From Candidatus Saccharimonadota bacterium (GTDB lineage: Archaea > Nanohalarchaeota > Nanosalinia > Nanosalinales > Nanosalinaceae): a stretch of DNA of 32,000 bases. This document shows positions 1-32,000 of this stretch, one piece after another. The notes beneath the pieces are model-generated. The model had not been told where the DNA came from. It did no database searches and was given only the letters and a program-made list of their open reading frames with translations. The stretch is taken from the NCBI RefSeq assembly GCF_029232205.1, contig NZ_CP107255.1, positions 750,001 through 782,000 on the forward strand. Direction: 5' to 3'. The translations under genes were made by a program, and so were the position numbers. Position 1 is the first letter of the stretch, and every line of letters begins with the position of its first letter.

Positions 1-12
1 GAGTCAGTTCAC

Positions 13-429
13 TTGATTACTTCGAAGAAGTCAGCGTCACGTGTGAAGACTGTGCTGGATTCTTTTCTGCCGCTTGTACTGATTCTGCTTTCGTTTGTAA
101 TACTTTTCCAGTTCTTTAATTTCGGGCCTGCAGCGGATACGTATATCAGTTATCTTAACTATGTGGTTATTCTTTTCTTTGCTGCCAGGCTGGGTATAGG
201 CCTGCGGCTTGCGCAGTCGAATACGAAGTTTGTTGAGGATCACTGGCTTGACATGTTGATGGTGATTCCTGCTCTCAGTATCTTGGAGGAGCTTGAGGTA
301 GGTGCAATCTTCGAGCAGCAGATGGTGGGAGAGAAGGCTACGGCAGGAATAGCGATGGCCCGTAATCTAGGCCTGTCTGCCAAGATGACCAAGATAATCA
401 GACTGGTTAAGAGAACTGTTACTTTCTGA
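13..429 (+). CDS. 4-TM membrane protein resembling an isolated voltage-sensor (S1-S4) domain of ion-transport channels; no pore domain follows
   Basis: ORF 13..429 starts at a TTG at 13. The frame is open back to nt 1, so the N-terminus may lie outside the window. It has three hydrophobic helices and an S3-like FVEDHWLDMLMVIPA. AKMTKIIRLVKR, with K/R at every third residue (S4-like), sits just before the stop at 427-429. Confidence 0.45.
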   Translation: MITSKKSASRVKTVLDSFLPLVLILLSFVILFQFFNFGPAADTYISYLNYVVILFFAARLGIGLRLAQSNTKFVEDHWLDMLMVIPALSILEELEVGAIFEQQMVGEKATAGIAMARNLGLSAKMTKIIRLVKRTVTF

Positions 430-501
430 ATAAGGGCCTTTTGGAACAGGTAAACTGTGGCTGAAGAGTTTGCTGTGTTAGAATAATTTTTTGAGAGGTT
501 A

Positions 502-575
502 TGGGCTCGACGGGATTTGAACCCGCGACTACCGGCTTAAAAGGCCGGTGCTCTGCCAGACTGAGCTACGAGCCC
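502..575 (-). tRNA. tRNA-Lys (anticodon UUU), 74 nt, CCA not encoded
   Basis: The reverse complement folds as GGGCTCG-TA-GCTC-AGTCTGGCA-GAGC-A-CCGGC-CTTTTAA-GCCGG-TAGTC-GCGGG-TTCAAAT-CCCGT-CGAGCCC-A. This is a complete cloverleaf with a 7-bp acceptor stem, a GTTCAAAT T-loop and the anticodon loop CT-TTT-AA. Confidence 0.93.
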
Positions 576-622
576 CTCCTTGTAGAAAATAAATGAGAGG
601 ATATGTTTTAAGTAAAAATCCC

Positions 623-841
623 TTATACGGTTTCCTGCTCAAAGTTGCCGTACTGGATGTTCTGTAGAGAGCTGTAGGGTACGAAGATTTCTCGGGCCTC
701 GATTCTGTGGGCCTTTTCGTCTTCGGTGATTACGTGAGGCTTTTCGGCCTCTACACCTTTTGCTTCTCTTTTCAGGTGTTCTTCGGATTCCAGTAGGAAG
801 TCTCCGGATTCCGTTAGTAGGATTACTTCGTATTCTGCCAT
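623..841 (-). CDS. hypothetical small acidic protein (72 aa), distal gene of the Sm-L37e operon
   Basis: ORF. Its ATG (841-839) directly abuts the TAA (844-842) that closes the zinc-ribbon frame of the L37e gene (TAAATG), which suggests translational coupling. No family recognised. Confidence 0.5.
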   Translation of the reverse strand: MAEYEVILLTESGDFLLESEEHLKREAKGVEAEKPHVITEDEKAHRIEAREIFVPYSSLQNIQYGNFEQETV

Positions 842-1002
842 TTACTCTTTCCTTGGCTTTGCTTTGTTGAAGTCGTTTCTTTTGGATGTGTTTCCGAAGC
901 CACATGCTGCGCATTCCTTCTTTCTGAGGTGGAATGCTTTCTTGCCGCATCTACGGCATTTGCCGTGGCTTTTCTTGTTTCGTTTTCCTTTGTTAAGTCC
1001 CA
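842..1002 (-). pseudogene. rpl37e: ribosomal protein eL37 (L37e) gene with the reading frame broken by an apparent 1-nt deletion (or an assembly error)
   Basis: Manual translation. The ATG at 1002 is preceded by CAGGTGACACATA (SD) and gives [15 protein letters not shown] different frame, running from 958 to the TAA at 844-842, gives [38 protein letters not shown], the L37e C4 zinc ribbon. The two parts would join in frame only if GGCAATGCC (963-955) were GGCAAATGCC. The usual Sm-L37e gene order supports the identification. Confidence 0.75.
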
Positions 1003-1029: not shown

Positions 1030-1269
1030 TTATTCCGGGCTGACAAAGAGTACGTTGTCGCCTCTTACGAAGAGCTTACCGTAGTCTGTCTGTCCGTCTT
1101 CTGTCTTTACGGAAGCATTTTCAAGCCAGATGTTGAGGTGCTTGTCGAATGCCTGTAGTTCTCCTGAAACTGTAGGTTCCTGATCTCTTCCGTATGCTTT
1201 TAGTTTTACTAGTACGTTTCCTTCTTTGGCCCCATCTAGAACGTCAAAAGGCCTTTTGTTATCTGCCAT
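1030..1269 (-). CDS. archaeal Sm-like protein (SmAP/LSm)
   Basis: 79 aa. The Sm1 motif is VLVKLK...GELQAFDKHLNIWLENA and the Sm2 motif is YGKLFVRGDNVLFVSP. An AGGTG SD lies upstream of the ATG at 1269, and the gene sits upstream of rpl37e as in many archaea. Confidence 0.9.
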   Translation of the reverse strand: MADNKRPFDVLDGAKEGNVLVKLKAYGRDQEPTVSGELQAFDKHLNIWLENASVKTEDGQTDYGKLFVRGDNVLFVSPE

Positions 1270-1355: not shown

Positions 1356-1931
1356 TTACTCAAGCAGATTTCCTAGATCTTTGAGGCCTTCGATAGCCTC
1401 TTGTGTTCTTTCAAGTTCATTTTCAGCATTGCTTTCGAAAGGTTCTGAATACGTTATGCGCATTTCACCATCTTGGATTTCTTCGTCATCGCTATCATAA
1501 GACGTATCAAACTCCAACATTACGCCAATCACACCGTCTGTATAGTTTACCCCAGCATTAATTTCTCCATCTATTGATGTTTTAATTGGATTTGGAAGTT
1601 GTGTGTTTTCTGATTCAGGAAGTGAGTCGTCAAACATTGCATCTTTATTTTTTCTCCAGTAATTGGATTCTTCTTGTCTCCCTGAAGCCTGAGCACTTGA
1701 TTCGCTCGCGCCTGCAACGTTTAGTAAGTACTTGGCAGCTTCATCTCTCTGAAGTTTTTCGGTTGTTGCACCTCTGTCTCCCCACTGGTATGTCATAGAA
1801 ACTTCTTCGGAAGGGTCTGAGATTGCCGTCTTAACCATTTGAGATGCTCCCGATGGCGTTGTCTTACCTGTTATTTTGATATCTGCTTCTGCGTCCATGT
1901 TGTTTTCGTAGTCTGAATCGACTGCTCTCAT
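1356..1931 (-). CDS. hypothetical, very acidic protein (191 aa)
   Basis: ORF with an ATG at 1931. A TATA-like CCTTTTTATTTG lies about 30 nt upstream on the minus strand (leaderless layout). No family recognised. Confidence 0.5.
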   Translation of the reverse strand: MRAVDSDYENNMDAEADIKITGKTTPSGASQMVKTAISDPSEEVSMTYQWGDRGATTEKLQRDEAAKYLLNVAGASESSAQASGRQEESNYWRKNKDAMFDDSLPESENTQLPNPIKTSIDGEINAGVNYTDGVIGVMLEFDTSYDSDDEEIQDGEMRITYSEPFESNAENELERTQEAIEGLKDLGNLLE

Positions 1932-2024: not shown

Positions 2025-2402
2025 ATGGCTGTTTGGCACAAAAGATCAATGACTAAGAAAACGGGCGGTAAAACCCGTAGGTACAGGAAATCTAGAAAAT
2101 ACGATCTCGGATCCGAGTTCTCCGAACCAGAAGTAGGAGATCAGAGGATTAGAGTAATTAGAACTCGCGGTGGAAATAATAAGAGCCGTGTTAAGAGATC
2201 TGAGACTGTAAACCTTGCTGTTGACGGCGAGGTTAAGAAGGCTGAGATTGAGCAGGTTCTTGAGAACCCGGCTAATCCGAACTTCGTTAGAAGATCTCTA
2301 CTTACAAAGGGAACTATCGTTGATACATCCGAAGGAAAGGCCAAGATTACTTCCAGGCCTGGACAGAACGGAGTTGTTAACGCAGTTCCTGTAGAGGAGT
2401 AA
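2025..2402 (+). CDS. rps8e: ribosomal protein eS8 (S8e)
   Basis: 125 aa. The N-terminus WHKRSMTKKTGGK..RRYRKSRKYDLG and the stretch IRVIRTRGGNNKSRV are typical of archaeal S8e. Confidence 0.92.
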   Translation: MAVWHKRSMTKKTGGKTRRYRKSRKYDLGSEFSEPEVGDQRIRVIRTRGGNNKSRVKRSETVNLAVDGEVKKAEIEQVLENPANPNFVRRSLLTKGTIVDTSEGKAKITSRPGQNGVVNAVPVEE

Positions 2403-3243: not shown

Positions 3244-3354
3244 TTATGCTAGTAGGCCTTTAACTTTGGAGAAAATCTTAACATGGATTCCTTTGGCTTT
3301 GAACTCTACCGGGATCTGTCTGCCGGTTTCGTCCATGAAATCGGTCTCCATCAT
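3244..3354 (-). CDS. possible leaderless small ORF (36 aa: MMETDFMDETGRQIPVEFKAKGIHVKIFSKVKGLLA)
   Basis: Found by hand in a 244-bp convergent spacer. A TTATAAA box (3379-3385) is centred about 28 nt upstream of the ATG at 3354. No homology recognised. Confidence 0.2.
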   Translation of the reverse strand: MMETDFMDETGRQIPVEFKAKGIHVKIFSKVKGLLA

Positions 3355-3448
3355 CAAGTGAATAAGCCGAGTTAAACCTTATAAACCATTCGCTGTTTTA
3401 AGCGTTCTAATCGTTTCTTAGAGAATAAGGCCTTCTCTTAGCTGTTTT

Positions 3449-4534
3449 TTACACGTGTCTGAGGTTGAGTTCGAGGATGTCTTCATCCATTAGCTCGTGT
3501 TCTTCTCCGACTTTCTGGTTAGGGAACTTTGAGCTTTCTCCTGTTACACGTGCGTGTTTGAAACGGTCTTTCATGTCTCCTGGAAGATGATCAAGCGCGT
3601 CTCCAACCGTATCGCCTTCTCTGAGAATTAGTGGATCTTCTTTGTCCGGGTCCTCGCCTTTTTCTTTCATGTATATCCTGATAAGGCCTATGCTTTCGAA
3701 GATGAGGTCCTGCAGTTCTTCAAGGTTTTTACCTTCCTGTGCAGAGATTAATAAATCGTATTTTTCCTTGTAGTCCTTGGTTTCCTGGTCTGAGAGAAGA
3801 TCCATTTTGTTGACTGCTGTGATTCCGGGCACGTACTTCCGGTTTCTCATGAGGCCGTCGATAAATCGGTCTAGATCGAGTTTTTCACGAATTATGACTT
3901 CTGCGTTGGTGAAGCCTTTCTGATGCATCAGTTGTTTGATGGTGTCGTCTTCAATGTCCAGGTCTACGGTTGTGGCAATGTTGATTCCGCCCCGGCCTTT
4001 CTTCTCTACTTTCATGTCTGGAGGTGACTGGTTGACTCTGATTCCTGCGTCGTATAGTTCGCCAGTTATTTCGTCGTATCTCATCTCCTCTGGATCAAGC
4101 AGTACAAGCACGAGATCAGCGTTGCGGACTACCGAAAGTACCTGTGTGCCTCCGCCGCGGCCCTCTGCTGCGCCGCCGATCAGTCCTGGCACGTCAAGTA
4201 TCTGTATGTTGGCCCCTTTGTGTTTCATCATGCCAGGTTCTACATCAAGCGTTGTGAACTCGTATTCGCCGGTTTCCGAGTCAGCATTTGTTAATCGGTT
4301 TAGAAGCGTGGATTTTCCTACAGAAGGAAACCCTACAAGAGCAACAGTTGCGTCGCCCTGTTTCTTGACCGCGTAACCCGAGGTCTCACCAGTGCCTTTA
4401 GCCTTCTGCTGTTTCTCCTCCTTGAGTTCGGCGATACGGGCCTTCAGTCGGCCTCTTTCCTTTTCAGTTGCCTTGTTTACCGGTGTCTCTTCAAGTTTAT
4501 CTTCTACTCGCTGAATCTCGTCTTCAAGGCCCAT
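3449..4534 (-). CDS. DRG/Obg-family GTP-binding protein with a C-terminal TGS domain
   Basis: The GTPase motifs are G1 GFPSVGKST, G3 DVPGLIGGA and G4 NKMD, and the C-terminus is TGS-like. The track ORF starts at a TTG at 4561. The ATG at 4534 (MGLEDEIQ) matches the usual family N-terminus. Confidence 0.88.
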   Translation of the reverse strand: MGLEDEIQRVEDKLEETPVNKATEKERGRLKARIAELKEEKQQKAKGTGETSGYAVKKQGDATVALVGFPSVGKSTLLNRLTNADSETGEYEFTTLDVEPGMMKHKGANIQILDVPGLIGGAAEGRGGGTQVLSVVRNADLVLVLLDPEEMRYDEITGELYDAGIRVNQSPPDMKVEKKGRGGINIATTVDLDIEDDTIKQLMHQKGFTNAEVIIREKLDLDRFIDGLMRNRKYVPGITAVNKMDLLSDQETKDYKEKYDLLISAQEGKNLEELQDLIFESIGLIRIYMKEKGEDPDKEDPLILREGDTVGDALDHLPGDMKDRFKHARVTGESSKFPNQKVGEEHELMDEDILELNLRHV

Positions 4535-4603: not shown

Positions 4604-5377
4604 TTAGAGGCCTTGTTTTCGGGCCTTTCTGTAGTCGTCTTCGATGCTGTCCATTAGGTTGTTGAATCCCTGGATTGATCTGTCTTTTTGTCTTACTGTG
4701 TTCATTAGTTCTCTTCTGAGGTCTCTGCGGTCTTCTTCTGGAGTGTCTTTGGGGAAAGAGTTTCCCGGTACAGCGTTTTCGTAGGTGTTATCCAGAAAAT
4801 CATCTCTGAATTCTTCTGCGACGTCTTCTCCATGCATGTCGGCCATCATTTCTATGCCCTTCAGTATTCTGGAGTGGTATGTCTCCTGTCTGCCTCTAGA
4901 TGTGAAGTAGTCAGATCTATCGTCTACGCTTTCTGTGAATATTGTCACACTAGTATCTAGATCCACTCCATCGACGTATGGCTGTATGACATCCGGATCT
5001 ACTTCCTCAACCCCATACCCTTCAGAGGAGGCTATAGCATCGTACTGTTCATCATCAAGACCTCTGATAACCACACCATTAATGACGTCCTCGTCATCGC
5101 CGGTATGTTCGGCTTCCAGCATAGTTCCTCCATATTTTTCCAAAGTATAGTTTCTTCTGAAGCCAGGGATCTTTACAGGTACGAATTCTAAGCCTTCTTC
5201 TCTATCTTTCTCCTCTTCCCATGCTTCAACGGCCTCCTCTCTCAGAAGGCCTTCGTCACCAAGTTCTTTTCCTTCATCATAAATAGGTTTAGCTGGACCT
5301 ATATCATCGTCGAATCTTGCCAGTACCGAAGTTGGTAGTATCAGGCTTCCATATCCGAAAGTTGAGTTTTGGCCCAT
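4604..5377 (-). CDS. hypothetical protein with a ChaC/gamma-glutamylcyclotransferase-like N-terminal motif and a long acidic tail
   Basis: FGYGSLI near the N-terminus and PGFRRNY further on resemble GGCT/ChaC-family motifs, but only weakly. The ATG at 5377 is preferred over the TTG at 5407. Confidence 0.35.
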   Translation of the reverse strand: MGQNSTFGYGSLILPTSVLARFDDDIGPAKPIYDEGKELGDEGLLREEAVEAWEEEKDREEGLEFVPVKIPGFRRNYTLEKYGGTMLEAEHTGDDEDVINGVVIRGLDDEQYDAIASSEGYGVEEVDPDVIQPYVDGVDLDTSVTIFTESVDDRSDYFTSRGRQETYHSRILKGIEMMADMHGEDVAEEFRDDFLDNTYENAVPGNSFPKDTPEEDRRDLRRELMNTVRQKDRSIQGFNNLMDSIEDDYRKARKQGL

Positions 5378-5489
5378 CGGAATCACAGTATTACTAGGCA
5401 ATAACAAAAATTATAAGCATTTCCGTATCGAAGAGCTTGTAGCTCATTCAGTAGAATTTAAACACAAATAAGAAGTTGGTAAAGGAGTT

Positions 5490-5558
5490 TCAGCCCATTA
5501 GATATGTGAAGGCCTGTTTTCCGAAGTCTATGAGTGCGAGTAGGATGATGAATTTCAT
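5490..5558 (-). CDS. possible leaderless micro-ORF (22 aa: MKFIILLALIDFGKQAFTYLMG), hydrophobic
   Basis: Found by hand. TATATTAA (minus strand, 5580-5587) is centred about 26 nt upstream of the ATG at 5558. Highly speculative. Confidence 0.15.
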   Translation of the reverse strand: MKFIILLALIDFGKQAFTYLMG

Positions 5559-6031: not shown

Positions 6032-6916
6032 ATGTGGCCCTTCAGCTCAGGAAAAGACAAGGATAAAGAAATTGAAAGACTGGAAGAAAAAGTCGAAAAA
6101 CTTCAGGAGGACGAGGATAGATGGAGAAAAAGATTCGAGGCCGAGAAAGAACGCAGAAGCAAGCTTTCAAAAGAAAAACAGGAAGCTGAAGAGCGTGCTA
6201 ATAGATTAAAGGATAAAATTGAGGGCCTGAAATCAGATACTGAGAAAGATGATTCTTCGGAGAGCTCTGATTCCAAGGGTAGAAGAGATCTTGATTTTGA
6301 GGAGGCCCGCAGAGTTATCAGTAAAATTTCTTCAGTAGCATCTTCAGAAGATGATCTCGTAACTGTTTATTCTGAAGGCGATAGAGAGAATATTGATGAT
6401 GTTAGAGGCCTTAAGAACTCTATTTCCGGTGAGCAGTTCAAGAGTATTGATGAGTCCGGGCTCTATTTTTTTGATGAGGATGAGGTCTTTGATCTTTTCC
6501 TGGATGTAAGGCCTTTCTTTGATTCTAAGTGGTTCTCCGGTGAGAGTTTCTCGGTTGGAGAGCTTGAGGATTTTGTTGGTAAGGAGAAGATCTGGGTGAA
6601 GGTTTCGGCCGGTAACTCGAAGGTTTTCCGTGAGTCAGATGGCGAGCTTGAGTTGCTAGAGCATGTTAAGGATCGTGTTGATCGCCAGCATTCTAGCGGT
6701 GGTTTTTCCCAGAGCCGTTTTGAGAGGAAGCGTGATGAGCAGATTCAGGGCCACGTGAAGAATGTTGATATTGCGATTCCTGATGAAGGAGAGGTCTTCC
6801 TTGTGGGTGAGAAAGACTTGTGCAGAGACTTGCCCGGCCAGTATCTTGGCGGTTTTGATCCTAACAAGTCTGATCTTGAGGCCCTTTACGGTTTTGGCGT
6901 TATGAGAAATCTCTAG
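6032..6916 (+). CDS. eRF1/Pelota central-domain paralogue with an N-terminal coiled coil (Vms1-like release factor, VLRF1 type)
   Basis: 294 aa. Residues 10-70 are an E/K/R-rich coiled coil. Residues 186-262, IWVKVSAG...RQHSSGGFSQSRFERKRDEQIQGHVKNV...VFLVGE, parallel the eRF1 segment [28 protein letters not shown], with GGFSQS (nt 6698-6715) in place of GGQS. Confidence 0.55.
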   Translation: MWPFSSGKDKDKEIERLEEKVEKLQEDEDRWRKRFEAEKERRSKLSKEKQEAEERANRLKDKIEGLKSDTEKDDSSESSDSKGRRDLDFEEARRVISKISSVASSEDDLVTVYSEGDRENIDDVRGLKNSISGEQFKSIDESGLYFFDEDEVFDLFLDVRPFFDSKWFSGESFSVGELEDFVGKEKIWVKVSAGNSKVFRESDGELELLEHVKDRVDRQHSSGGFSQSRFERKRDEQIQGHVKNVDIAIPDEGEVFLVGEKDLCRDLPGQYLGGFDPNKSDLEALYGFGVMRNL

Positions 6917-6955
6917 CAGCCTGATATAAATGATTTTAGAGGTAAATGCTTTGGC

Positions 6956-7465
6956 GTGAAACTTCACCTTGTTGAGGGCGATGAGGCTTATGATACAGCA
7001 TTTGAGTATGTTAGAGATGAGGATCTGGAGGGTGTTCTGGGAGTTCATTATCGTGATGGAGGCCTCTACGATCCTGAGAGTGCTGCTTTTGCAGGGATCG
7101 AGTTGAGGCATCCGGATCAGAGACATGGTGATCCTGTTGAGTTAGAGGCAGGTAGTGTAGAGGCCGTTGATTACAATGATTTGACCGGTGTTGGCGTTCT
7201 TGCAAACAAGTTTTTCGAGAATACTGACGGAGTTCTTACCTATTTCAATAATTTCGATAGTCATGCGGAGGAAGTGAGAGGTTCTGAGGAAGCTGAGCAG
7301 AGGCTATTTCAGTTTATTCATACATTGGAGGGCGCAGCAGAAAGGAATGGAGAGCTTGTTCTGCAGGTTGATGAGAGTTCAGAGTTTTACGATACCCAGT
7401 TCTACCACACCATATTGACTCTTGTAGATGAAGAAGAACCACTGCTTGAGGGCTCCTTTGAGTAA
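6956..7465 (+). CDS. hypothetical acidic protein (169 aa)
   Basis: ORF with a GTG start at 6956, 39 nt downstream of the preceding gene on the same strand. No family recognised. Confidence 0.45.
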   Translation: MKLHLVEGDEAYDTAFEYVRDEDLEGVLGVHYRDGGLYDPESAAFAGIELRHPDQRHGDPVELEAGSVEAVDYNDLTGVGVLANKFFENTDGVLTYFNNFDSHAEEVRGSEEAEQRLFQFIHTLEGAAERNGELVLQVDESSEFYDTQFYHTILTLVDEEEPLLEGSFE

Positions 7466-7493: not shown

Positions 7494-8183
7494 ATGGATG
7501 AGGAAGAGAAGATTCGGGAGTTGAACAGAAGGTTGAAAGAGCGTTACGGCGAGCCACCTGAGCCTCCCGAGTTGAGCGCTGTTGACTATCTTATTGAGAC
7601 AATTCTTTCTCAGAACACTAACGATATTAACCGTGACAAGGCCTACAAGAACCTGACAGAGAAATACGATACCTACGAGGAGATTGAGAACGGCGATTAC
7701 GAGGAACTTGTTGATACTATCAGGATTGCCGGGCTTGGACCTACCAAGGCCGAGAGAATTCAGGAATCCTTGAGAATTGTACGCGAAGATCAGGGCGAGT
7801 ACAGCCTTGAGTTCCTTAGAGATATGAGTGTTGACGATGCGAAGGACTGGCTGACTCAGATTCCTGGTGTCGGGCCTAAGACCGCTGCAATCATTCTGTG
7901 TTTCTATTTCAGGATGCCGGTTTTCCCTGTTGACACTCACGTTCACAGGATTTCGAAGAGGCTAGGCCTTATTCCTCGGAATGCTGGTAGAAAGAAGGCT
8001 CACAACATTTTGGAGAAGAAGGTGCCTGATGATATCAAGTATGAGCTTCATCGTTTGATGATTGAGTACGGCCGCGATACTGCTTCTGCCAGGAATCCTG
8101 ACTGCGAGAACTGTATATGGCCTGAGGAGTGCGATTACTATCAGGAGGTTTACAAGGGCAGCATGGATCCTGAAGAATTCTGA
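7494..8183 (+). CDS. nth: endonuclease III-like HhH-GPD DNA glycosylase/lyase
   Basis: The HhH-GPD motif IPGVGPKTAAIIL carries the catalytic Lys, and VDTHVHRI carries the Asp. The C-terminal cluster region is CENCIWPEEC (C-x2-C-x5-C). Confidence 0.85.
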   Translation: MDEEEKIRELNRRLKERYGEPPEPPELSAVDYLIETILSQNTNDINRDKAYKNLTEKYDTYEEIENGDYEELVDTIRIAGLGPTKAERIQESLRIVREDQGEYSLEFLRDMSVDDAKDWLTQIPGVGPKTAAIILCFYFRMPVFPVDTHVHRISKRLGLIPRNAGRKKAHNILEKKVPDDIKYELHRLMIEYGRDTASARNPDCENCIWPEECDYYQEVYKGSMDPEEF

Positions 8184-8231: not shown

Positions 8232-8262
8232 GAAGAGGCCTAGGAAATTATTCTAGGTCTTC
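8232..8262. terminator. imperfect hairpin between convergent genes
   Basis: GAAGA(GG)CCTAG - 9-nt loop - CTAGGTCTTC. The right arm overlaps the last codons of the gene at 8248..8451. Confidence 0.25.
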
Positions 8263-11757: not shown

Positions 11758-11889
11758 ACTGAATTATTAGTAGGAAAAAGTGATAAAATGCAATCGATCA
11801 TGTGAAGTAATTCTTTTCCTGGCCGAAGAATTTTTTCCTCGGGGCCTTCCTCGGTTAAAGTGAAAAGTTTGGAGAGGCCTTGTTTTTGT

Positions 11890-23530: not shown

Positions 23531-23546
23531 AGGCCTTTTTAGGCCT
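23531..23546. terminator. AGGCCT-TTTT-AGGCCT hairpin between convergent genes
   Basis: Two copies of the self-complementary hexamer can form a 6-bp stem with a 4-nt loop. The second copy overlaps the adkA stop codon (23539-23541), and T-runs follow on both strands. Confidence 0.4.
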
Positions 23547-24108: not shown

Positions 24109-25463
24109 TTATGGATCACGTGTAGTTTTTCGGCCAAGTAATTTAACCATTTATCGTCTTCGAGGACTGGCTCGGTGAATACTGCCTCCTCCATTTTCTC
24201 AGCTACGTAGTTTGGAACTCCTTCCTCTTTCAGTTTTTCTCTGTCTCTTGATACGAATTCTTTGAGAAGTGTTCTTGCATCGGTGTATTCTCTCTCGGTT
24301 TTTGCGATAAGCCTGTCTCCCTGCACGAACGTGTTTTCGTATTTCGATGTGAACTGCTCCATGTGGTCTTTTCCGTGGAATACTCGTGGGCCTTTGAGTT
24401 CTTCGATTGCTGGGAGGTGCTGGCTGAGCTCGAAGAATATTCTTGTATTCTCCTCTCCAACGTGGAAACCTGATTCAAACAGTCTGAAGTCATTCTTTGT
24501 CAGTACTGACTCCATTCTGGAGAGCGTCTTCCTCATCTGAGGATAGACCACATCGTCCACTTCGTCAGGACTATCGAACTCTATGACCAGAAAGTCTCCT
24601 CTATCCTTTATCTCTTTTTCAAGCTCGAATCTCTCATACTCAGGATCTTCTTCCCGGAAAAAGTCAATTCCAGGTTTCTTGTTGAATCTCCAGGCCTGAT
24701 GAATAAATTCTGCGTAGTTCTGAGTAGAGAGTACTGAGGCCACATTTCTCTCAGGATCCACTGGATCAATTACTACAAGGTTATCGTTCGAGAACTTGTT
24801 CTTTAATTCCTGTGGAAGGCCTTCTTCGTGATAGTTTTCTAGATCGAGGACTTTTTCCTGAGTCCAGTCCTCCACATCCTCTATAAGTTCTCTGAAGCTG
24901 CCGTATTCTGCTACAAGTATTTCACAGAGGTAGCCTGAGAAACCTCTGTTTTTCAGTGATGATCCGTAAAGGCCTCTTTTCTTGAGGAATTTTTTGAGTA
25001 GTACAGCGTCTTTTTTCTGTTCTTCGTCAAGATTTTCTCGGGCCCATCTGGAGTGGTGTGGTGTTCTGTCGACTGCGCTTCTGATGTCTTCCGGGCTTGT
25101 GTCGAAGCATGGAACTATTTCTACCTCTACTCCCTCTATATGGCCTTTGCTGTATGGGTGTTCGGCGTATTCGACGTGGTAGTCGGCGTTGAAGTTCTGG
25201 AATGTTTTCTTTCCTATTTCCAGGCCTTTATTCTCAAGTTCTATTCTTTCAGTGGTTTCAGGGAAAAGCACGAAGAGATCGATGTCTTTGTCTCCGGCCA
25301 TGCAGGTTTTTCTTCCTGCTGACCCTGCGAAATGTGTTTCAAGGCCGTATTCTTCCTCTATGTATTCGGAGATTTTATCGTAGAGGCCCTGTATTTTCTC
25401 GAATTCTTCTTCTGTCGGATATATTTCTTCCAGTACTTTTTCTCTTAGCCTTTCCCAGTTCAT
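24105..25463 (-). CDS. cca: CCA-adding enzyme (class I tRNA nucleotidyltransferase)
   Basis: 452 aa. GSAGRKTCMAGDKDIDLFVLF is the catalytic motif. Its presence is consistent with the tRNA-Lys gene lacking an encoded CCA. Confidence 0.92.
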   Translation of the reverse strand: MNWERLREKVLEEIYPTEEEFEKIQGLYDKISEYIEEEYGLETHFAGSAGRKTCMAGDKDIDLFVLFPETTERIELENKGLEIGKKTFQNFNADYHVEYAEHPYSKGHIEGVEVEIVPCFDTSPEDIRSAVDRTPHHSRWARENLDEEQKKDAVLLKKFLKKRGLYGSSLKNRGFSGYLCEILVAEYGSFRELIEDVEDWTQEKVLDLENYHEEGLPQELKNKFSNDNLVVIDPVDPERNVASVLSTQNYAEFIHQAWRFNKKPGIDFFREEDPEYERFELEKEIKDRGDFLVIEFDSPDEVDDVVYPQMRKTLSRMESVLTKNDFRLFESGFHVGEENTRIFFELSQHLPAIEELKGPRVFHGKDHMEQFTSKYENTFVQGDRLIAKTEREYTDARTLLKEFVSRDREKLKEEGVPNYVAEKMEEAVFTEPVLEDDKWLNYLAEKLHVIHK

Positions 25464-26576: not shown

Positions 26577-27023
26577 ATGGTAGTAGTGGACGCCAATGTA
26601 ATCATCCATGGCCGTGCAGATCAAAGGTTCAGTCAGGCCTTTACAGTACCGGAAGTGCTTGAAGAGATGAAGAGCAGTGAGGCCAGTATGAAGGCAGATC
26701 TGCTTGATTTGCAGGTTCAGCGGCCTGACAGCGAGATATTTGAGCAGGTTCAGTCGAAGTCTGAGGAGATTGGTGCTGCTACTTCGGAAACCGATGAGAA
26801 ACTTCTGGCCCTGGCGTTAACCAGAAAAGATTCTCTAGTGACTGATGACAAGGATTTGCAGAATCTGGGCCTTCATCTAGAAGCCGAGGTTGAAGGTTTT
26901 CTTGAGGACCGTATTGAGAAGAAGCTTCAGTGGATTTCTGTATGCAGTAACTGCGGCCGGGAAGTATCTACTCCTCCATGTCCACGTTGTGGATCCCAGC
27001 AGGTTCGTCGGAAACTAGATTAG
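26577..27023 (+). CDS. nob1: Nob1-like endonuclease (PIN domain plus zinc ribbon)
   Basis: VVVDANVIIHG and LVTDDKDLQN are PIN acidic motifs, and CSNCG...CPRCG is the zinc ribbon. The ATG at 26577 is preferred over the one at 26532. Confidence 0.75.
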   Translation: MVVVDANVIIHGRADQRFSQAFTVPEVLEEMKSSEASMKADLLDLQVQRPDSEIFEQVQSKSEEIGAATSETDEKLLALALTRKDSLVTDDKDLQNLGLHLEAEVEGFLEDRIEKKLQWISVCSNCGREVSTPPCPRCGSQQVRRKLD

Positions 27024-28032
27024 CGTAGTCCATAACGAATTCTTTTGTAAGAATCAGTAGTAGAGGACCGATAATCAATCCTTTGAGGCCGAGTACGAGT
27101 GGTCCTGCGAGGAATCCGAGGAATACTACCAGTGGGTGTTCTTCCATCTGTTTTGATCCGATGTATGGCCTTAGGAAGATTTCTGTCATTACATTGAGCG
27201 CTATTATTCCGAATACAATTATCAGGGATCCTTTGAATGGCTGGCCTATCATTATGTAGTATCCTCCTAGAGGTACGTAGAACATGAATGCTGCGACCAG
27301 AGGAAGTAGTGCTGCTACTGCCACCAGGAAGGCCCATAGCGGGATTAGCGGTATTGGGGATGTTATGAGTGCGATGAGGTAGAGGCCTATTGCTGTTGAG
27401 ATTCCGAGAATGACTGCTACGATTATCTGTGTCATGAAAACTCCTCGGAAGATTTTATCGACTGAGTGAATCAGCGATCGGAGAATCTTTTCCTCAGGTC
27501 TTGGCATCTCGTCTAGAAGGCCTTTGATCTGGCTGCTTAGTTTGGCTCTGTCTCTGTATAGGAATAGTGCTGTTACGAAGAATATACCTAGATCGATTAG
27601 AAGTGAGGGTGCTGATACGAACATTTGGATGAGCTGGTTGGTTACTTCGCTTGACATCTGGTCGATGAACTGTTGCAGGTTCTGCTGGAAAGATGGCGAT
27701 AAGTTCAGGAACATCACCAGGTTGGATACAAGGTCGCTTAACTGGCCTGAGAACTCCTCAACTTCCGAGAGTATGGTGAAGAAGTTGTTGAGGAAGAGAT
27801 AAAGGCTCATTGATATTATTGATATGACAGCTGAGATCACAGTAACTGAGGATAGAATATCATTCTTCAGATAGCTGTTTACCCAGTCGTGTGCGAATTT
27901 CAACAGGTATGATACAACTACAGCCATCAGTATCGAGTCAAGAAACGGGTACAGGATAAAGAAGCTGCCTAAGACAAGGAGGCCGGCAACTACAAGTGTT
28001 TCTCTCTGGGTTCTCAGCTTTTCCTCATCCAT
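26968..28032 (-). CDS. AI-2E family (PerM/UPF0118) transporter
   Basis: 354 aa with about 8 TM helices. The conserved C-terminal region is LRPYIGSKQMEEHPLVVFLGFLAGPLVLGLKGLIIGPLLL. Confidence 0.75.
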   Translation of the reverse strand: MDEEKLRTQRETLVVAGLLVLGSFFILYPFLDSILMAVVVSYLLKFAHDWVNSYLKNDILSSVTVISAVISIISMSLYLFLNNFFTILSEVEEFSGQLSDLVSNLVMFLNLSPSFQQNLQQFIDQMSSEVTNQLIQMFVSAPSLLIDLGIFFVTALFLYRDRAKLSSQIKGLLDEMPRPEEKILRSLIHSVDKIFRGVFMTQIIVAVILGISTAIGLYLIALITSPIPLIPLWAFLVAVAALLPLVAAFMFYVPLGGYYIMIGQPFKGSLIIVFGIIALNVMTEIFLRPYIGSKQMEEHPLVVFLGFLAGPLVLGLKGLIIGPLLLILTKEFVMDYANLVSDEPAGIHNVDMEE

Positions 28033-28173
28033 GTTAAGGGTATGACAGAAAGACCGTTAAATTATCTATCCCTCAAAGAAACAACTCTGTTACTACTGAA
28101 GCATAAAACATAAGAGGCTAAGATATTTAAAATTTGGCCTTCCTTTAGGCCTTGTTTAGGTGTAAAATAAAAA

Positions 28174-29244
28174 ATGACTGAAGATGGTAACATTCCGCGA
28201 AGACAGTTTGATAATTATGAAGTCCCAGAAGAATGGGAGGAAGATGAAGAAACAGAAGAACAGGAAGGAGAAGAAGCCCCTGATGAAGACGCAGAGGGAT
28301 ATGAAGTCGTCCAGGAAGAAGCAGAGGAAGGCGAAACAGTACTTACATGTCCAGAATGTGATTCTCAGAGATTCGAGGAAGACTCCTCAAAAGGAGAGCT
28401 TATCTGTATCGAATGTGGTTTCGTAATCGACGAAGACCGTATCGACGAATCCGCAGAATGGAGAGCATTCAACGCAGAAGAAAAAGAGAAAAAGGCCCGA
28501 GCAGGCCAGCCACTAACGTACACAAAGCACGACATGGGAGTATCCACAGAAATTGGAAAAGGAAGTGGAGAACTCTACAAAGTCTCAGGCAACAAAAGAG
28601 CACAGTACTACAGACTCAGAAAATGGCACAAGAGACTGACCAAGTCAAAGGACCGCAACCTCGGATTTGCACTATCCGAACTGAACTCGATGATCTCCAA
28701 CTTGAACCTGCCTGAATCAGTCCACGAAGAGACAGCCAGACTATACGAGAAAGCTGTCGACCAGGGACTGGTCAGAGGACGTTCCATGGAGTCCATCATC
28801 TCTGCAATCATCTACATTGTAGCAAGAAAGCAGGGAACTCCAAGAACTCTTGACGAGATCTCAGATGCCTCCGGAATCGAGAAAAGAGAGATCGGACGCG
28901 CATACAGATACGTCGCAAGAGAACTAGGCCTCAGAATCCTGCCAGCAAAGCCTCAGGACTACGTACCAAGATTCGCCGGTAAACTCCAGCTATCAGGAGA
29001 AGTCCAGGCCCGAGCACGTAACATCCTGAAAGAAGCAAGAGAAAGAGACCTCCTCTCAGGAAAAGGCCCTACAGGCCTCGCCGCTGCAGCACTTTACATC
29101 GCAGCAGTACTTGAAGGAGAGAAGAGAACACAGAGAGAAGTAGCAGACGTAGTAGGAGTAACAGAAGTCACAATCAGGAACCGCTACAAAGAACTAGCAG
29201 AGAAACTAGGCCTCGAGGAAGAGCTCGAAGAGAAATCCAACTAA
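28174..29244 (+). CDS. tfb: transcription initiation factor IIB (TFB) with an approximately 55-aa acidic N-terminal extension
   Basis: The zinc ribbon is CPECDS...CIECG, followed by a B-finger/linker and two cyclin repeats. TATA ATATTTAAAA lies at about 28122-28131, and a TAGGTG SD lies upstream of the ATG. Confidence 0.96.
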   Translation: MTEDGNIPRRQFDNYEVPEEWEEDEETEEQEGEEAPDEDAEGYEVVQEEAEEGETVLTCPECDSQRFEEDSSKGELICIECGFVIDEDRIDESAEWRAFNAEEKEKKARAGQPLTYTKHDMGVSTEIGKGSGELYKVSGNKRAQYYRLRKWHKRLTKSKDRNLGFALSELNSMISNLNLPESVHEETARLYEKAVDQGLVRGRSMESIISAIIYIVARKQGTPRTLDEISDASGIEKREIGRAYRYVARELGLRILPAKPQDYVPRFAGKLQLSGEVQARARNILKEARERDLLSGKGPTGLAAAALYIAAVLEGEKRTQREVADVVGVTEVTIRNRYKELAEKLGLEEELEEKSN

Positions 29245-29289
29245 AGGCCTTTCTCTCACCACATTTTTCTTTTTCTCATATTAGCTATC

Positions 29290-29727
29290 TTAGTCCATCG
29301 TTGCTGGTTCTGTAACATCTGCATCAGCTGAAACATCAAGAGAATCATCTTCAACTGATTCTGTTTCCATGTAAGCTGGTAGGCTGAAAACGTCATAAGC
29401 TGGTTTCCAGACATCTGTAGCAAGATATCTTTGATCTTCAGCACCATCCACGCCTATCTCAACCATTACCTGTCTAGCGAGGACATCATCATTGTGCATA
29501 GTGGCTTTCCAGTAGTCCTGAGCATAACCATGATCAAGCTGAACTTGCATCGAAACCTCCGCCGTCTCTGCGCCGTTGAGAACTTCCTGAGCAGTTGCAT
29601 CTACTCCTAATTCTGAAAAAAGCTCATTAATTTGCTCTCTGTCCGCTCCCGCTACTTCATCACCGCCCTCTACTATTTCTGGCGGCGTAGATCGATTAGA
29701 GCCGTAACTACTATTTCTGTACTTCAT
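29290..29727 (-). CDS. hypothetical acidic protein (145 aa)
   Basis: ORF only. No family recognised. Confidence 0.45.
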   Translation of the reverse strand: MKYRNSSYGSNRSTPPEIVEGGDEVAGADREQINELFSELGVDATAQEVLNGAETAEVSMQVQLDHGYAQDYWKATMHNDDVLARQVMVEIGVDGAEDQRYLATDVWKPAYDVFSLPAYMETESVEDDSLDVSADADVTEPATMD

Positions 29728-29807
29728 TTACATTAAAACCTGCGGCCAGCCGATTTAAAAAACTTTGGGGACAACAAGTAAGCCGGCCTTAAATGCAAAG
29801 ATCATTC

Positions 29808-30890
29808 TTAATCTTTCATTGCAGAAATAACATCTTCTAAAGGCGCATCAGTTCTTATACCTGTAGGAGTGAAGTGCGTTCGGGATACAGGATATCCTTT
29901 CTCCCTCAAATTTTCTATGACATCCTCTCTTTTCGGCGCCATTAATCCAGTTGAGGAGGCCATTTTGTGAAGATCATAGAAAGGAGTCAGTATCTCGGCC
30001 TCAGAATCAAGCAACTCTACTATCTCCCGCGATTCCCAATCCTCTGGCATTTCTTCCAGCACTTCTGAGGTAAATCTCTGATCGGAAATTTTTCCAGTCC
30101 ATAGAGGGCCTGCAACCTTGACTTCTGCACCACAGTGGCCGCATTTATCGACTCTTTCCAGTTTTCTCCATCTACACTGCGGACAGAAGCTCATGTAGCC
30201 TATATTCTCCAGAGTTCTGTTTGCTCGGCTCTTTGACTCCGTAACTCTTCCCATCACTCTAGTATAGTGTCTTTCATGCCAGCAAATCTTTGGATCGAAG
30301 CATTTGTCGTAGCGAGCGAAGTTCTGGAAGGCCTCCTTAATGTAAATCCTGAGTCCTGTCTCATGCATCAACGCGTTCTTCATCGGAGTAGATCCGTATC
30401 TCCTCATGCAGGTCTTCTTGTAGCTTCCAGCAGGAACCGCGTTATCAGTTGCTGTCAGGCCTACAAAGCTCTGGTAGTTAGCTGCTCTGGCCGTGGAATC
30501 AAGGTAAGGTGTGAAAGGTCCGAAAGGATCTACATCTATAAGGTGGAAGAAGTTCCTGTTCTCTGAAAGAAAAACGTTGGCGTCGCTTTCAGAAACTTCG
30601 GCCTCAATGTCGTTTTCCTCGAGGCCTTTCTCTATACTTTCAATCGCTCTTGGATTAGTATCGTTTAGATGGATGTTGCCCTGGCCTGAGTACCTGAATC
30701 CTCGGATGCCCGAGGCTGCTAGCGCGTCGGCAATATTGAACTCTGGCACCTCTACTTTCTCTCTGAAAACCTTCAGTGCGGCCCACGAGATATCCCTGTT
30801 GTTCTTCATGTCTTTATTGTAGAACACACTGGAGTCTTTCCCCGGCTCTTCCTCTTCCGGCACGAAGATTTTCAGGCCTCTTTCTTCCAT
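29808..30890 (-). CDS. trm1: tRNA (guanine26-N2)-dimethyltransferase Trm1
   Basis: FYNKDMKNNRD, ALAASGIRGFRY, IDVDPFG and the zinc motif CPQC...CGHCG are all present. Confidence 0.92.
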   Translation of the reverse strand: MEERGLKIFVPEEEEPGKDSSVFYNKDMKNNRDISWAALKVFREKVEVPEFNIADALAASGIRGFRYSGQGNIHLNDTNPRAIESIEKGLEENDIEAEVSESDANVFLSENRNFFHLIDVDPFGPFTPYLDSTARAANYQSFVGLTATDNAVPAGSYKKTCMRRYGSTPMKNALMHETGLRIYIKEAFQNFARYDKCFDPKICWHERHYTRVMGRVTESKSRANRTLENIGYMSFCPQCRWRKLERVDKCGHCGAEVKVAGPLWTGKISDQRFTSEVLEEMPEDWESREIVELLDSEAEILTPFYDLHKMASSTGLMAPKREDVIENLREKGYPVSRTHFTPTGIRTDAPLEDVISAMKD

Positions 30891-31010
30891 GAAGAATAAT
30901 ATTCCAGAAACTATTTTTAAACCGCAAACCGCAGAGGCCCAACTCTTTTAAATAGAGGTCGGAGAAAAGCTCCTCGTTCCTTTTATAAACCTTTCAATGC
31001 TCATGTCTAC

Positions 31011-31343
31011 TTGCGGTGGTTTTTGTTGAGTAATGTAGTACAAGAAGTCAAAAAGGCAGAGAAAGACGCCAAATCCATAATCGAAGACGCGGAAGAAAGC
31101 CGCGAAGAAATTCTCTCCGATGCTAGAGAAGAAGCAGAGGACATAGTCGAAAGTAAGAAAGAGAACATGCAGGAGAGAAAGGAGAAGGAACTCAAGAAGT
31201 TCAGAAAAGAAATTGAAGAACAGAAAGACGATATTGTTGAGGAAGGAGAGACAGAAGCCACCGAGATCAAGAATCAGGCCAGCGAAAACACTGAGGAAGC
31301 AAAAGAATTCCTAGAACAGAAATTTGAAGAAGACTTCCTCTAG
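31011..31343 (+). CDS. atpH: A-type ATP synthase subunit H
   Basis: It is a charged helical protein (VVQEVKKAEKDAKSIIEDAEESREEILSDAREEAE) immediately upstream of atpI. The start is uncertain, TTG at 31011 or 31026. TATA TTTTATAAA lies at 30983-30991. Confidence 0.75.
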   Translation: MRWFLLSNVVQEVKKAEKDAKSIIEDAEESREEILSDAREEAEDIVESKKENMQERKEKELKKFRKEIEEQKDDIVEEGETEATEIKNQASENTEEAKEFLEQKFEEDFL

Positions 31344-32000
31344 GTGGTTAAAATAAAACCAACAGAAATGACCAAAATCTCCGTAACAGGGCCGAAGAAA
31401 TACCTGAAAGATGTTATAGATGAACTTCATTCTCTAAAAATTCTTGACATAGAGTCCTACGACGGAGATCTTGAGACCGGAGAACCTTTCGAAGAGGCCG
31501 AAGACCTTTCACAACTTCTAGTAGACATCAGATCACTTGAATCCAAACTACCTGAACTCGAAGAAGTTGAGGAAGAAGAACTGGATCTGGAGGAAATAGA
31601 GGAAAATATTCCGGAAATCTCATCCAAGATCGACAGACTAACCAGCAAAAAGGAAAGACTGAAGAGAAAAATCTCAGGCCTTAACGACGAAAAAAAGTTC
31701 TTCAAAAGAATAACAGGAACAGGCCTGACCTACGACGATCTTCAGGGATCAGAAAGACTTGAAGTATTCATCGGAGACCTGGACGCAGAAGCGCTAAAAG
31801 AAAAATCTTCCGGGAACTACGAACTACTGGAAGGCCGAAGCACAAACGTTGTAATATATGAGAAAGACTCTGGAATGAAACAAGTCCTGATGGATGTCCA
31901 AGAAAGAAGCTATGAACTTCCGGAAGGAGACTTCTCAGGCACACCTGAAGACATTGTAAACAATACTGAGGCCCGAAAAGAAGAATTCAAAAACGAGATA
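31344..32000 (+). CDS. atpI: A-type ATP synthase subunit I, N-terminal part (runs off the window)
   Basis: It is not in the ORF track because there is no stop before the window end. Manual translation from the GTG at 31344 (or the ATG at 31368) gives VKIKPTEMTKISVTGPKKYLKDVIDELHSLKILDIE..., the typical subunit I N-terminus. The frame stays open for 219 codons. Confidence 0.85.
   Translation, partial: MVKIKPTEMTKISVTGPKKYLKDVIDELHSLKILDIESYDGDLETGEPFEEAEDLSQLLVDIRSLESKLPELEEVEEEELDLEEIEENIPEISSKIDRLTSKKERLKRKISGLNDEKKFFKRITGTGLTYDDLQGSERLEVFIGDLDAEALKEKSSGNYELLEGRSTNVVIYEKDSGMKQVLMDVQERSYELPEGDFSGTPEDIVNNTEARKEEFKNEI

Follow-up and report, generated by a model that had tools for sequence, protein, structure and literature searches.

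The closest described counterparts of the sequence feature reported here are the highly iterated palindromes (HIPs) of cyanobacteria, comprising HIP1, GCGATCGC, and 'alternate HIPs' such as GGCGCC, rCCGGy and GCsGC (Elhai 2015, PMC4390886; Xu et al. 2018, PMC5861425). Every cyanobacterial HIP co-occurs with a methyltransferase for it, and the single-base variants of HIP1 are biased towards the outer positions (PMC4390886). The conservation of HIP1 sites resembles that of sequences under selection (PMC5861425), the abundance of HIP1 correlates with type IV secretion genes, and methylated HIP1 lifts transformation more than 100-fold (bioRxiv 10.1101/2024.09.10.611283). Why some genomes fill with one short palindrome has been an open question, in the case of HIP1, for three decades, and we describe here an independent case in another domain of life, the hexamer AGGCCT in a stretch of nanohaloarchaeal DNA (contig NZ_CP107255.1, positions 750,001 to 782,000 of the forward strand; 'the window' denotes this whole stretch of 32,000 nt). 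AGGCCT, which is the StuI site and contains the HaeIII site GGCC, is present in the window in approximately 12-fold excess. The comparison with related genomes reveals a genome-wide, lineage-specific and site-preserving pressure on this Type II-like palindrome, with the opposite sign in some relatives.

By exact search, the window (44.7% GC) contains 72 copies of AGGCCT, dispersed along it at 2.25 per kb with a mean spacing of 444 nt. The zero-order expectation is 6.0-6.1 copies, dinucleotide-preserving shuffles (n = 100) give 7.1 ± 2.5 with a maximum of 15, and AGGCCT ranks first of all 4096 hexamers at Markov orders 0 and 1. A preliminary description of the window had put the count at about 72, the expectation at about 5-7 and the excess at about 10-fold, in good agreement with these values (11.8x zero-order); 33 of the 35 start positions that it listed are exact, while the site given at 11571 starts at 11561 and that given at 30621 starts at 30622. 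Markov orders 0, 1, 2, 3 and 4 predict 6.1, 7.7, 23.6, 46.2 and 72.9 copies, respectively, such that the excess is gone at the maximal order, i.e., once the pentamers AGGCC and GGCCT are given. The core is itself abundant (239 GGCC versus 80 expected), with a 5' A on ~55% of its copies and a 3' T likewise on ~55%. Since the product of the half-site frequencies is 72.9, the signal here consists of a GGCC core with independent preferences for a 5' A and a 3' T. GGCC with zero, one and two correct flanks stands at 1.1x, 3.8x and 11.8x zero-order, a multiplicative series (odds ratio ~1) in which each flank independently adds a ~3.3-fold gain in the window's lineage. The outer-position variants NGGCCT and AGGCCN reach 3.2-4.1x, compared with 0.3-1.7x for inner-position variants, which resemble those of other lineages. 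The earlier estimate of 3-4x for flank variants and the claim that the A...T flanks add to a general GGCC excess are thus borne out, with the refinement that the palindromic hexamer is no commoner than the product of its two half-sites in this lineage.

A gene map built from open reading frames (ORFs) and Pfam matches places 65 sites in genes. All three codon phases occur, as had been proposed with correct examples from the genes for S8e and endonuclease III (Nth): 10 sites read AGG-CCT (phase 0, Arg-Pro), 13 read xAG-GCC-Txx (phase 1) and 42 read xxA-GGC-CTx (phase 2, x-Gly-Leu). The dominance of the Gly-Leu phase (42/65) speaks for the alternative that the excess is an artefact, produced by codon usage, amino-acid composition or a family of dispersed repeats. 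Three metagenome-assembled genomes (MAGs) of Acidilobaceae (L075, L076 and L079, 60% GC; L-numbers label compared loci throughout) lend this alternative a precedent, with AGGCCT at ~5.5x alongside GAGCTC at ~5x and GAGGAG at 11-14x and no GGCC excess, which looks like an AGG/GAG codon effect and hence another phenomenon. In the window, however, shuffling synonymous codons within genes (n = 1000) yields 15.6 ± 3.5 copies (maximum 28), shuffling them across genes 13.9 ± 3.4, and permuting whole codons 9.7 ± 3.1, against 65 observed (z = 14-18 over the three shuffle types). The site is carried by 64 of the 123 synonymously permissive positions (52%; 13.9 expected from codon usage), and occupancy is similar over the three phases, at 10/21 for Arg-Pro (48%; 1.0 expected), 12/30 for (Lys/Glu/Gln)-Ala-(T..) (40%) and 42/72 for x-Gly-Leu (58%). 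Glycine is encoded by GGC in 57 of 75 cases before CTN codons versus 172 of 577 elsewhere. The spacers (3,328 nt, 36.7% GC) hold 7 sites versus 0.36 expected, a 19-fold excess (Poisson P = 1e-7); the preliminary description rightly placed sites in spacers, although it counted about 8. Conservation beyond the hexamer is limited to the adjoining positions, where A at -1 and T at +1 are weakly preferred and T at -1 is disfavoured; this rules out a dispersed repeat element, and the same genes occur in other lineages without the sites. A codon or dipeptide artefact is refuted by the shuffles, the occupancy and the spacer density, and the probability that we would give to any artefact of these kinds is negligible: the AGGCCT excess is a DNA-level signal, as first suggested.

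The MCM protein encoded in the window (9766-11757) shares 96% identity with its counterpart in 'Candidatus Nanohaloarchaea archaeon M3_22' (CP046106) and 74-92% with many other Nanohaloarchaeota MCMs, and nucleotide identity between the window and M3_22 is 80.5% over 19.8 kb. M3_22 was assigned by Reva et al. to the genus Ca. Nanohalovita, the type strain of which, BNXNv, has 45.0% GC (PMC10266531). Because this close relative is placed there, the window probably comes from the same genus, judging by these identities. Among ~20-kb MCM loci from ~40 nanohaloarchaeal species, AGGCCT enrichment is bimodal. Eleven loci show 10-21x (the window, L001, L002/M3_22, L005/Nanosalina VS9-1, L006, L015, L020/SG9, L021, L024, L028 and L068), and the remaining MCM loci 0-3.3x, with a single one at 5.8x; in all, 14 loci are enriched, at 10-25x. 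Eight non-enriched nanohaloarchaeal loci are depleted when pooled (11 AGGCCT versus 32 expected, P = 1.4e-5, the lowest at 0-0.6x), and no substitute palindrome above ~4x was found in the non-enriched nanohaloarchaeal loci. The enriched taxa form three clades with non-enriched sisters in an MCM neighbour-joining tree; as this is a single-gene tree, the number of gain and loss transitions is only indicative. Enrichment is therefore limited to some nanohaloarchaeal lineages, with others neutral or depleted in the MCM tree, which is a second refinement of the original observation. Two contigs in the comparison, L026 (JBLGBK010000006.1, titled 'Colwellia polaris') and L057 (JAUYPF010000059.1, 'bacterium'), encode an archaeal MCM, that of L026 being 77% identical to the window MCM, and are probably mislabelled or mis-binned MAG contigs.

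A second, unlinked locus was reached in four genomes via glutamate dehydrogenase (GDH) from a metagenome contig:

Nanosalina VS9-1: MCM locus 21.2x, second locus 18.2x, ~617 kb apart on a 1.05-Mb chromosome
NHA25: MCM locus 0.6x, second locus 0.6x
Assembly of L035 and L254 (JBDGSL01): MCM locus 2.0x, second locus 3.0x
Assembly of L074 and L255 (JBDGRK01): MCM locus 2.2x, second locus 1.2x

As unlinked loci agree within each genome, enrichment is a property of the whole genome. The excess first read from the window is neither a miscount, nor reproduced by codon-preserving shuffles, nor confined to that stretch. Two metagenome contigs carrying 16S rRNA and GDH genes are likewise dense in sites: L210 holds 27 in the 5.07 kb outside its 16S rRNA gene (~30x) and 0 inside it, and L252 holds 45 in 11.5 kb (25x). 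The 16S rRNA of L210 is 88-92% identical to that of other nanohaloarchaeal contigs. In VS9-1, the rRNA and tRNA genes contain 4 sites in 4.7 kb versus 22 predicted from the flanking density (P = 3e-6). AGGCCT is realised wherever sequence is free to vary. GDH adjoins the 16S rRNA gene in several nanohaloarchaea (L249, which is VS9-1 CP180230.1 126,630-147,850; L250; L210), and the ~2.5-kb gap between the 16S and 23S rRNA genes of VS9-1 holds a class I S-adenosylmethionine (SAM)-methyltransferase gene (13789-14427), another gene and a tRNA. TFB 'paralogues', also considered as distant loci, turned out to be orthologues in the same neighbourhood.

The sites are preserved over time. Compared with M3_22, 29 of 44 alignable sites (66%) are conserved versus 31.7% of all hexamers (P = 4e-6), and compared with L001, 19 of 35 versus 28%. 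Synonymous third positions are more often conserved inside sites than outside them (78% versus 62% against M3_22, P = 0.005; 76% versus 61% against L001), and the alignable spacer sites are all conserved in M3_22 (3/3). Three-way parsimony with the window, M3_22 and L001 identifies 14 sites common to all, with 5 losses and 3-4 gains per terminal branch. The corresponding expectations of ~15 losses and ~3 gains are estimates from average divergence and neighbour counts, and the numbers are small; read in this way, losses are ~3-fold below expectation and gains are near what mutation would supply, such that slower loss appears to be the main factor sustaining the steady state, in which turnover is close to even. 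Between enriched lineages, including those of different clades, 42-58% of site positions are shared (background 15-21%), and non-enriched relatives retain 4-14% of the enriched-lineage positions. It should be noted that at ~50% occupancy, independent filling of the same permissive positions would give equal sharing, and common ancestry of the sites is thus not proven.

These patterns bear on the idea that methylation to 5-methylcytosine (m5C), coupled to very-short-patch T:G repair, turns AGGTCT and AGGCTT into AGGCCT. The principle is established by Dcm/Vsr acting on CCWGG in E. coli, C-to-T changes dominate the single-base differences between enriched lineages, and Ca. Nanohalococcus SVXNc expresses an m5C methyltransferase that has no assigned motif. 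However, the gains near the neutral rate count against such conversion, and the T-variants are not specifically depleted. AGGTCT/AGACCT stand at 1.45x in enriched loci versus 1.80x in others, a drop of ~20% that other variants at the same position share, and AGGCTT/AAGCCT stand at 1.73x versus 1.56x. Before CTN codons, the glycine codon GGT is less depleted than GGA. Outer-position variants as a group are raised in enriched loci (1.9-2.4x versus 0.26-0.92x in others), and inner-position variants are not. The effect known from E. coli is, moreover, far smaller than 10-20x. Finally, M3_22 is listed without a Vsr gene and with an N4-methylcytosine (m4C) rather than an m5C enzyme (PMC10609329). 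Taken together, we consider this route improbable.

The context of the core differs among the enriched clades, in which unflanked GGCC ranges overall from 0.3x to 1.1x. In clades 1 and 3, GGCC outside AGGCCT is at 0.3-0.7x where AGGCCT is at 16-21x, and the full hexamer shows synergy (odds ratios of ~3-7 in clade 1). The window's clade differs in having neutral unflanked GGCC and independent half-sites. The deficit of GGCC in clades 1 and 3 is in line with a model of sheltering only, in which an AGGCCT methyltransferase shields GGCC from a GGCC-cutting enzyme of the host or community and the site has no positive role. The same model draws on the pooled value of 0.75x for GGCC over 27 non-enriched nanohaloarchaeal loci and on two haloarchaeon-like contigs (L067 and L078; Halobacteriales/Euryarchaeota MAG contigs of ~7 kb, 61-62% GC) with 0 GGCC versus 64-65 expected, which suggest that GGCC-specific restriction is common in the hypersaline community hosting nanohaloarchaea. 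Sheltering removes a penalty, however, and can neither lift a site 10-25x above expectation, nor fill half of the permissive positions, nor shift dipeptide use; we regard it as a very improbable explanation when taken alone.

Dipeptide use is in fact shifted. Gly-Leu occurs at 7.7 per 1000 in enriched versus 5.0 in non-enriched lineages (up 53%, P = 4e-9) and Arg-Pro at 3.2 versus 2.5 (up 27%, P = 0.03), with the reversed dipeptides Leu-Gly and Pro-Arg equal in both groups; the pressure for AGGCCT is strong enough to raise the frequencies of both dipeptides. Such a skew of the proteome is among the points in favour of a methylation-independent uptake or recombination signal, in which conspecific DNA with AGGCCT would be preferred for uptake or recombination and AGGCCT alleles would replace site-less ones through molecular drive similar to that of the uptake signal sequences (USS) of Pasteurellaceae and the DNA uptake sequences (DUS) of Neisseriaceae. 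This reading also accommodates the filling of about half of the permissive positions in all three frames and in spacers, the tolerance of single-base variants at certain positions only, the lineage 'dialects' at the -1/+1 flanks of AGGCCT and the position of the spacer copies, 5 of 7 of which are downstream of genes. HIP1 itself has recently been proposed as an uptake sequence, and giant surface proteins of nanohaloarchaea carry a VirB4/TraG-like ATPase domain (PMC10266531). On the other hand, uptake drive leaves unexplained the depletion of GGCC outside the motif and of the motif itself in other lineages. A 6-bp palindrome also offers little specificity, known uptake sequences being asymmetric and 9-12 nt long, and we know of no evidence for competence in nanohaloarchaea. 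We hold uptake drive to be unlikely, yet a live candidate.

The spacing of the sites is near random but slightly more even than random, with a coefficient of variation (CV) of 0.86 in the window and 0.88 pooled over nine enriched loci (Kolmogorov-Smirnov (KS) P = 0.001), and pairs less than 30 nt apart are ~3-fold too rare in enriched genomes. A spectral peak at ~40 nt is also seen in the pair distances of the pooled enriched loci (21x mean power), although it may be an artefact, because orthologous loci share sites and their pairs are non-independent. The even spacing and the deficit of close pairs agree with an array of binding sites, kept by selection, for an abundant homodimeric nucleoid, chromatin or segregation protein of some lineages. 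The independent, multiplicative half-sites seen above (1.1x, 3.8x and 11.8x) are what additive binding energy predicts, the conservation of spacer sites agrees as well, and HIP1 has been read in a similar manner by Xu et al. (PMC5861425). No candidate protein is known, however, and no trait-linked gene was seen in the compared loci. Restriction-modification enzymes, more often than nucleoid proteins, have contiguous 6-bp palindromes as their sites. The active depletion of AGGCCT in other lineages is likewise not predicted by a binding-site array, and we rate this possibility as rather unlikely.

A 6-bp palindrome that flips between accumulation and avoidance, with GGCC treated differently according to its context, suggests a sequence-specific reader. 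We tentatively favour, at something short of even confidence, a methylation-linked 'self' tag of the HIP kind, which would be protected after it has formed and read, most probably, by an orphan Type II DNA methyltransferase with GGCC or AGGCCT as its target. Under this model, a lineage-specific and sequence-specific protein would read the motif, with an orphan Type II methyltransferase for GGCC or AGGCCT as the top candidate; DNA with the modified site would have an advantage in retention, repair, recombination or acceptance as 'self'; new sites would come from ordinary mutation and be protected from then on, producing a ratchet; and in lineages that lack the reader, the same sequence would be neutral or a restriction target, and hence lost. 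In a survey of REBASE, the M3_22 entry comprises a single restriction-modification gene, for an orphan Type II methyltransferase predicted to form m4C (PMC10609329, Tables 1-2), with no nuclease, no Vsr (V = 0) and no m5C enzyme (m5C = 0). Together with the HIP literature, this lone methyltransferase adds weight to a methylation-linked tag.

Several observations weigh against this preference. Neither phmmer searches with M.HhaI or M.HaeIII nor motif patterns found a methyltransferase in the compared nanohaloarchaeal loci, no gene tracking the trait was found in the MCM neighbourhood of those loci, and a database search with M.HaeIII returned close bacterial relatives only; a search of the PDB did no more than confirm the query. 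To our knowledge, none of the nanohaloarchaeal methyltransferases has a known specificity for GGCC or AGGCCT. For BNXNv, probably a member of the window's genus, a type III Mod/Res is the only restriction-modification system named in the paper describing it. The single-molecule real-time (SMRT) methylome of SVXNc shows GDGcHC only, although SVXNc need not be one of the enriched lineages and SMRT sequencing misses m5C. In addition, there is no synergy beyond the half-sites in the window's clade, which a hexamer-specific enzyme would not obviously be expected to give, and gains are not detectably above the neutral rate, such that the build-up of the excess is not directly seen. The independence of the half-sites, together with the type III system of BNXNv, had raised the idea of a type III Mod that reads asymmetric AGGCC; this is disfavoured, since M3_22 shows the same pattern and has no type III genes listed. 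The candidates named in the preliminary description (a binding protein acting as a dimer, a tag for self-recognition or uptake, and methylation coupled to biased repair) are all live, with the T:G-repair version disfavoured.

An extension of the methylation-linked tag, which we consider speculative and on balance unlikely, is that the modified palindrome marks nanohaloarchaeal DNA as an archaeal 'self-tag' and steers DNA exchange or recombination between symbiont cells, or discrimination of self from host across cytoplasmic bridges, through a system gained or lost several times. If true, this would be the first archaeal 'self-tag', with genomes flipping between avoidance and 20-fold accumulation, and an independent and experimentally tractable parallel to HIP1 in a 1-Mb genome in which candidate genes are very few.

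The individual sites, all AGGCCT, 6 nt long and palindromic, are distributed over the genes and spacers of the window as follows:

198..203 and 369..374, in the ion-transport-like gene (1-429, + strand), both phase 2, x-Gly-Leu
502..575, tRNA-Lys gene (- strand), the window's one tRNA gene, free of AGGCCT, in keeping with the scarcity of sites in structural RNA genes of enriched genomes
1249..1254, in the LSm gene (1030-1269, - strand), phase 0, Arg-Pro
1384..1389, in a hypothetical gene (1356-1931, - strand), phase 2
2355..2360, in the ribosomal protein S8e gene, phase 0, Arg-Pro
3254..3259, spacer site downstream of 2596-3204, conserved in M3_22 (L002)
3428..3433, spacer site 21 nt downstream of the GTPase gene, conserved in M3_22
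3684..3689, in the DRG-type GTPase gene, phase 2
4608..4613 and 5247..5252, in a hypothetical gene (4604-5407, - strand), both phase 2
5510..5515, in the spacer 5408-5630
6406..6411 (phase 2) and 6509..6514 (phase 0, Arg-Pro), in the VLRF1-like gene
7060..7065, in a hypothetical gene (6956-7465, + strand), phase 2
7639..7644 (phase 1, Lys-Ala-Tyr) and 7964..7969 (phase 2, Leu-Gly-Leu), in the endonuclease III gene
8236..8241, spacer site between convergent genes, conserved in M3_22
8561..8566, in the aIF2-beta gene, phase 1
10113..10118, in the MCM gene, phase 1; alignment column 1786, occupied in 13/35 aligned MCM genes
10134..10139 (phase 1) and 10249..10254 (phase 0), in the MCM gene, gains of the window's lineage by parsimony
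10712..10717 (phase 2), 11098..11103 (phase 0) and 11561..11566 (phase 2), in the MCM gene
11875..11880, in the pterin dehydratase gene, phase 0
13312..13317 and 13585..13590, in the TBP gene, both phase 2
13874..13879 (phase 2) and 13923..13928 (phase 1), in the RNase P Rpp14 gene
14482..14487 (phase 2) and 14594..14599 (phase 1), in the RNase P Rpp30 gene
14959..14964, in the ribosomal protein L15e gene, phase 2
16017..16022, 16242..16247, 17034..17039 and 17283..17288, in the DNA ligase gene, phase 2
16157..16162 (phase 0), 16640..16645 (phase 0) and 17047..17052 (phase 1), in the DNA ligase gene
18284..18289 and 18326..18331, in the nitroreductase gene, both phase 2
19565..19570 and 19802..19807, in the S49 peptidase gene, both phase 2
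20431..20436 (phase 2), 20555..20560 (phase 0), 20945..20950 (phase 0) and 21570..21575 (phase 1), in the Elp3 gene
22039..22044, in the DUF6884 gene, phase 1
23058..23063 and 23214..23219, in a hypothetical membrane protein gene, both phase 2
23531..23536, spacer site (15-nt spacer separating convergent genes), first copy in the pair AGGCCTTTTTAGGCCT
23541..23546, in the AAA_17 kinase gene (phase 1), overlapping its stop codon region, second copy in the pair AGGCCTTTTTAGGCCT
23807..23812 and 23966..23971, in the AAA_17 kinase gene, both phase 2
24692..24697 (phase 1) and 24817..24822, 24970..24975 and 25222..25227 (phase 2), in the CCA-adding enzyme gene
26635..26640, in the PIN RNase gene, phase 1
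27383..27388 and 27518..27523, in the AI-2E transporter gene, both phase 2
28147..28152, spacer site in the divergent-promoter region upstream of TFB
28926..28931, 29073..29078 and 29208..29213, in the TFB gene, all phase 2
29245..29250, spacer site directly after the TFB stop codon, between convergent genes
30329..30334 (phase 1) and 30457..30462, 30622..30627 and 30874..30879 (phase 2), in the Trm1 gene
31676..31681 and 31721..31726, in a V-ATPase subunit gene (partial), both phase 2

Pfam scans of the gene map found no DNA methyltransferase or restriction gene, as the preliminary description had also stated; a 156-aa ORF (6656-7126) was outside the scan, and Trm1 (29808-30890) is a tRNA methyltransferase. 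Genes of DNA metabolism are numerous in the window (12186-13115, 7494-8183), including those for MCM, an ATP-dependent ligase, endonuclease III, a dCMP/cytidine deaminase, a NUDIX protein and two OB-fold proteins. Since the same genes are found in non-enriched relatives, none of them accounts for the trait. The ORFs of the DNA ligase (15998-17767, - strand) and the nitroreductase (17580-18371, + strand) overlap by 188 nt when read from their first start codons, and the true start of one or both is probably further in. The two copies at 23531-23546 lie 10 nt apart with a T run after each (AGGCCTTTTTAGGCCTTT); in or next to a 15-nt convergent spacer, the pair may represent a terminator context. 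Most of the window's genes are on the - strand, coding strands are purine-rich (0.57-0.65), and the + strand has 31.6% T versus 23.7% A. GTAC is the most under-represented tetramer in the window (0.66 of the maximal-order expectation), and CGCG and GCGC are at 0.39x and 0.48x of the zero-order expectation.

Our literature search found no report of an excess of AGGCCT, or of any other hyper-abundant palindrome, in nanohaloarchaea or in archaea of other groups. Among the other compared loci, L069 (Ca. Altarchaeum sp. CG2_30_32, 12.4 kb, 32% GC) contains 17 GCGCGC versus 0.2 expected and 67 GCGC versus 7.9 expected, a possible further case of a GC palindrome in great excess, here in an AT-rich archaeal genome, and in the Nanoarchaeota loci L039 and L054, GCGC and CGCG are both at ~3x. 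When viral contigs were scanned for AGGCCT clusters, the hits were chance clusters and tandem repeats, and the eight checked loci with the most dispersed enrichment are not halophile-like. Five non-halophile viral contigs from IMG/VR (L163, L082, L165, L109 and L188) show a dispersed AGGCCT excess of 5-30x, and L188 also has an m5C-methyltransferase-like ORF (4971-6710); AGGCCT may thus be enriched in unrelated virus-host systems too.

With genomes of ~1 Mb and a single reported methyltransferase in the closest relative, the list of candidate 'readers' is very short. Closely related lineages that stand at 10-25x, are neutral or are depleted offer a natural on/off contrast well suited to phylogenetic profiling. 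Because the related nanohaloarchaea BNXNv, SVXNc and LC1Nh grow in co-culture, their methylomes and their sensitivity to digestion are accessible to experiment. AGGCCT changes both codon choice and dipeptide content, and thereby affects composition-based binning and selection models, and its density provides a simple marker by which contigs from hypersaline metagenomes can be assigned to the enriched lineages.

Comparison with known systems shows likenesses and differences of several kinds. The avoidance of restriction-site palindromes is known in prokaryotic genomes, and AGGCCT belongs to the same class of Type II-like palindromes of 4-6 bp, with GGCC and AGGCCT avoided in other nanohaloarchaea and in the haloarchaeon-like contigs; in the window's genome, however, the sign is opposite and the motif is over-represented. 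Chi and KOPS (FtsK orienting polar sequences) are likewise short oligomers maintained at high genome density for a DNA-transaction function, but they are asymmetric, strand-skewed octamers with an excess far smaller than that of AGGCCT. Dcm/Vsr repair, which shapes CCWGG and CTAG frequencies in E. coli, offers the parallel of a methyltransferase target raised by repair biased towards that target. Its effect is modest and predicts a depletion of T-variants that is not seen for AGGCCT, and M3_22, as the closest relative, is reported without a Vsr gene and with an m4C-type enzyme. The USS of Pasteurellaceae and the DUS of Neisseriaceae resemble AGGCCT in their density of about one or more per kb, in accumulating where coding allows and downstream of genes, in the peptide skew that they impose (Gly-Leu and Arg-Pro being raised here) and in having lineage dialects, but they are asymmetric sequences of 9-12 nt read by a known competence machinery, whereas AGGCCT is a 6-bp palindrome in a group with no known competence.

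The likeness to the HIPs extends furthest. Both are short GC-rich palindromes in large excess (HIP1 15-300x, GGCGCC ~15x; AGGCCT 10-25x at 2-5 per kb), occur in every reading frame and in spacers, are conserved above background and have a patchy presence among related genomes. In both, the inner core shows no excess away from the full motif, and variants with a single changed base are concentrated at the outer positions. The differences lie in the motif, in the host, which is a DPANN archaeon with a genome of ~1 Mb, and in the distribution, since AGGCCT is found in three clades of the MCM tree while HIP1 is nearly phylum-wide. AGGCCT is also depleted in some other lineages, its cognate methyltransferase is putative, and its half-sites act independently in the window's clade. 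Members of the HIP class are quasi-periodic at the scale of 10-90 kb; AGGCCT, read here over 32 kb, has a short-range spacing slightly more regular than random. AGGCCT in the window's genome is not HIP1, the GCGATCGC of cyanobacterial genomes, but it displays every sequence property of the HIP class that was tested, namely an order-of-magnitude excess, presence in all frames and spacers, conservation and the outer-position bias of its variants.

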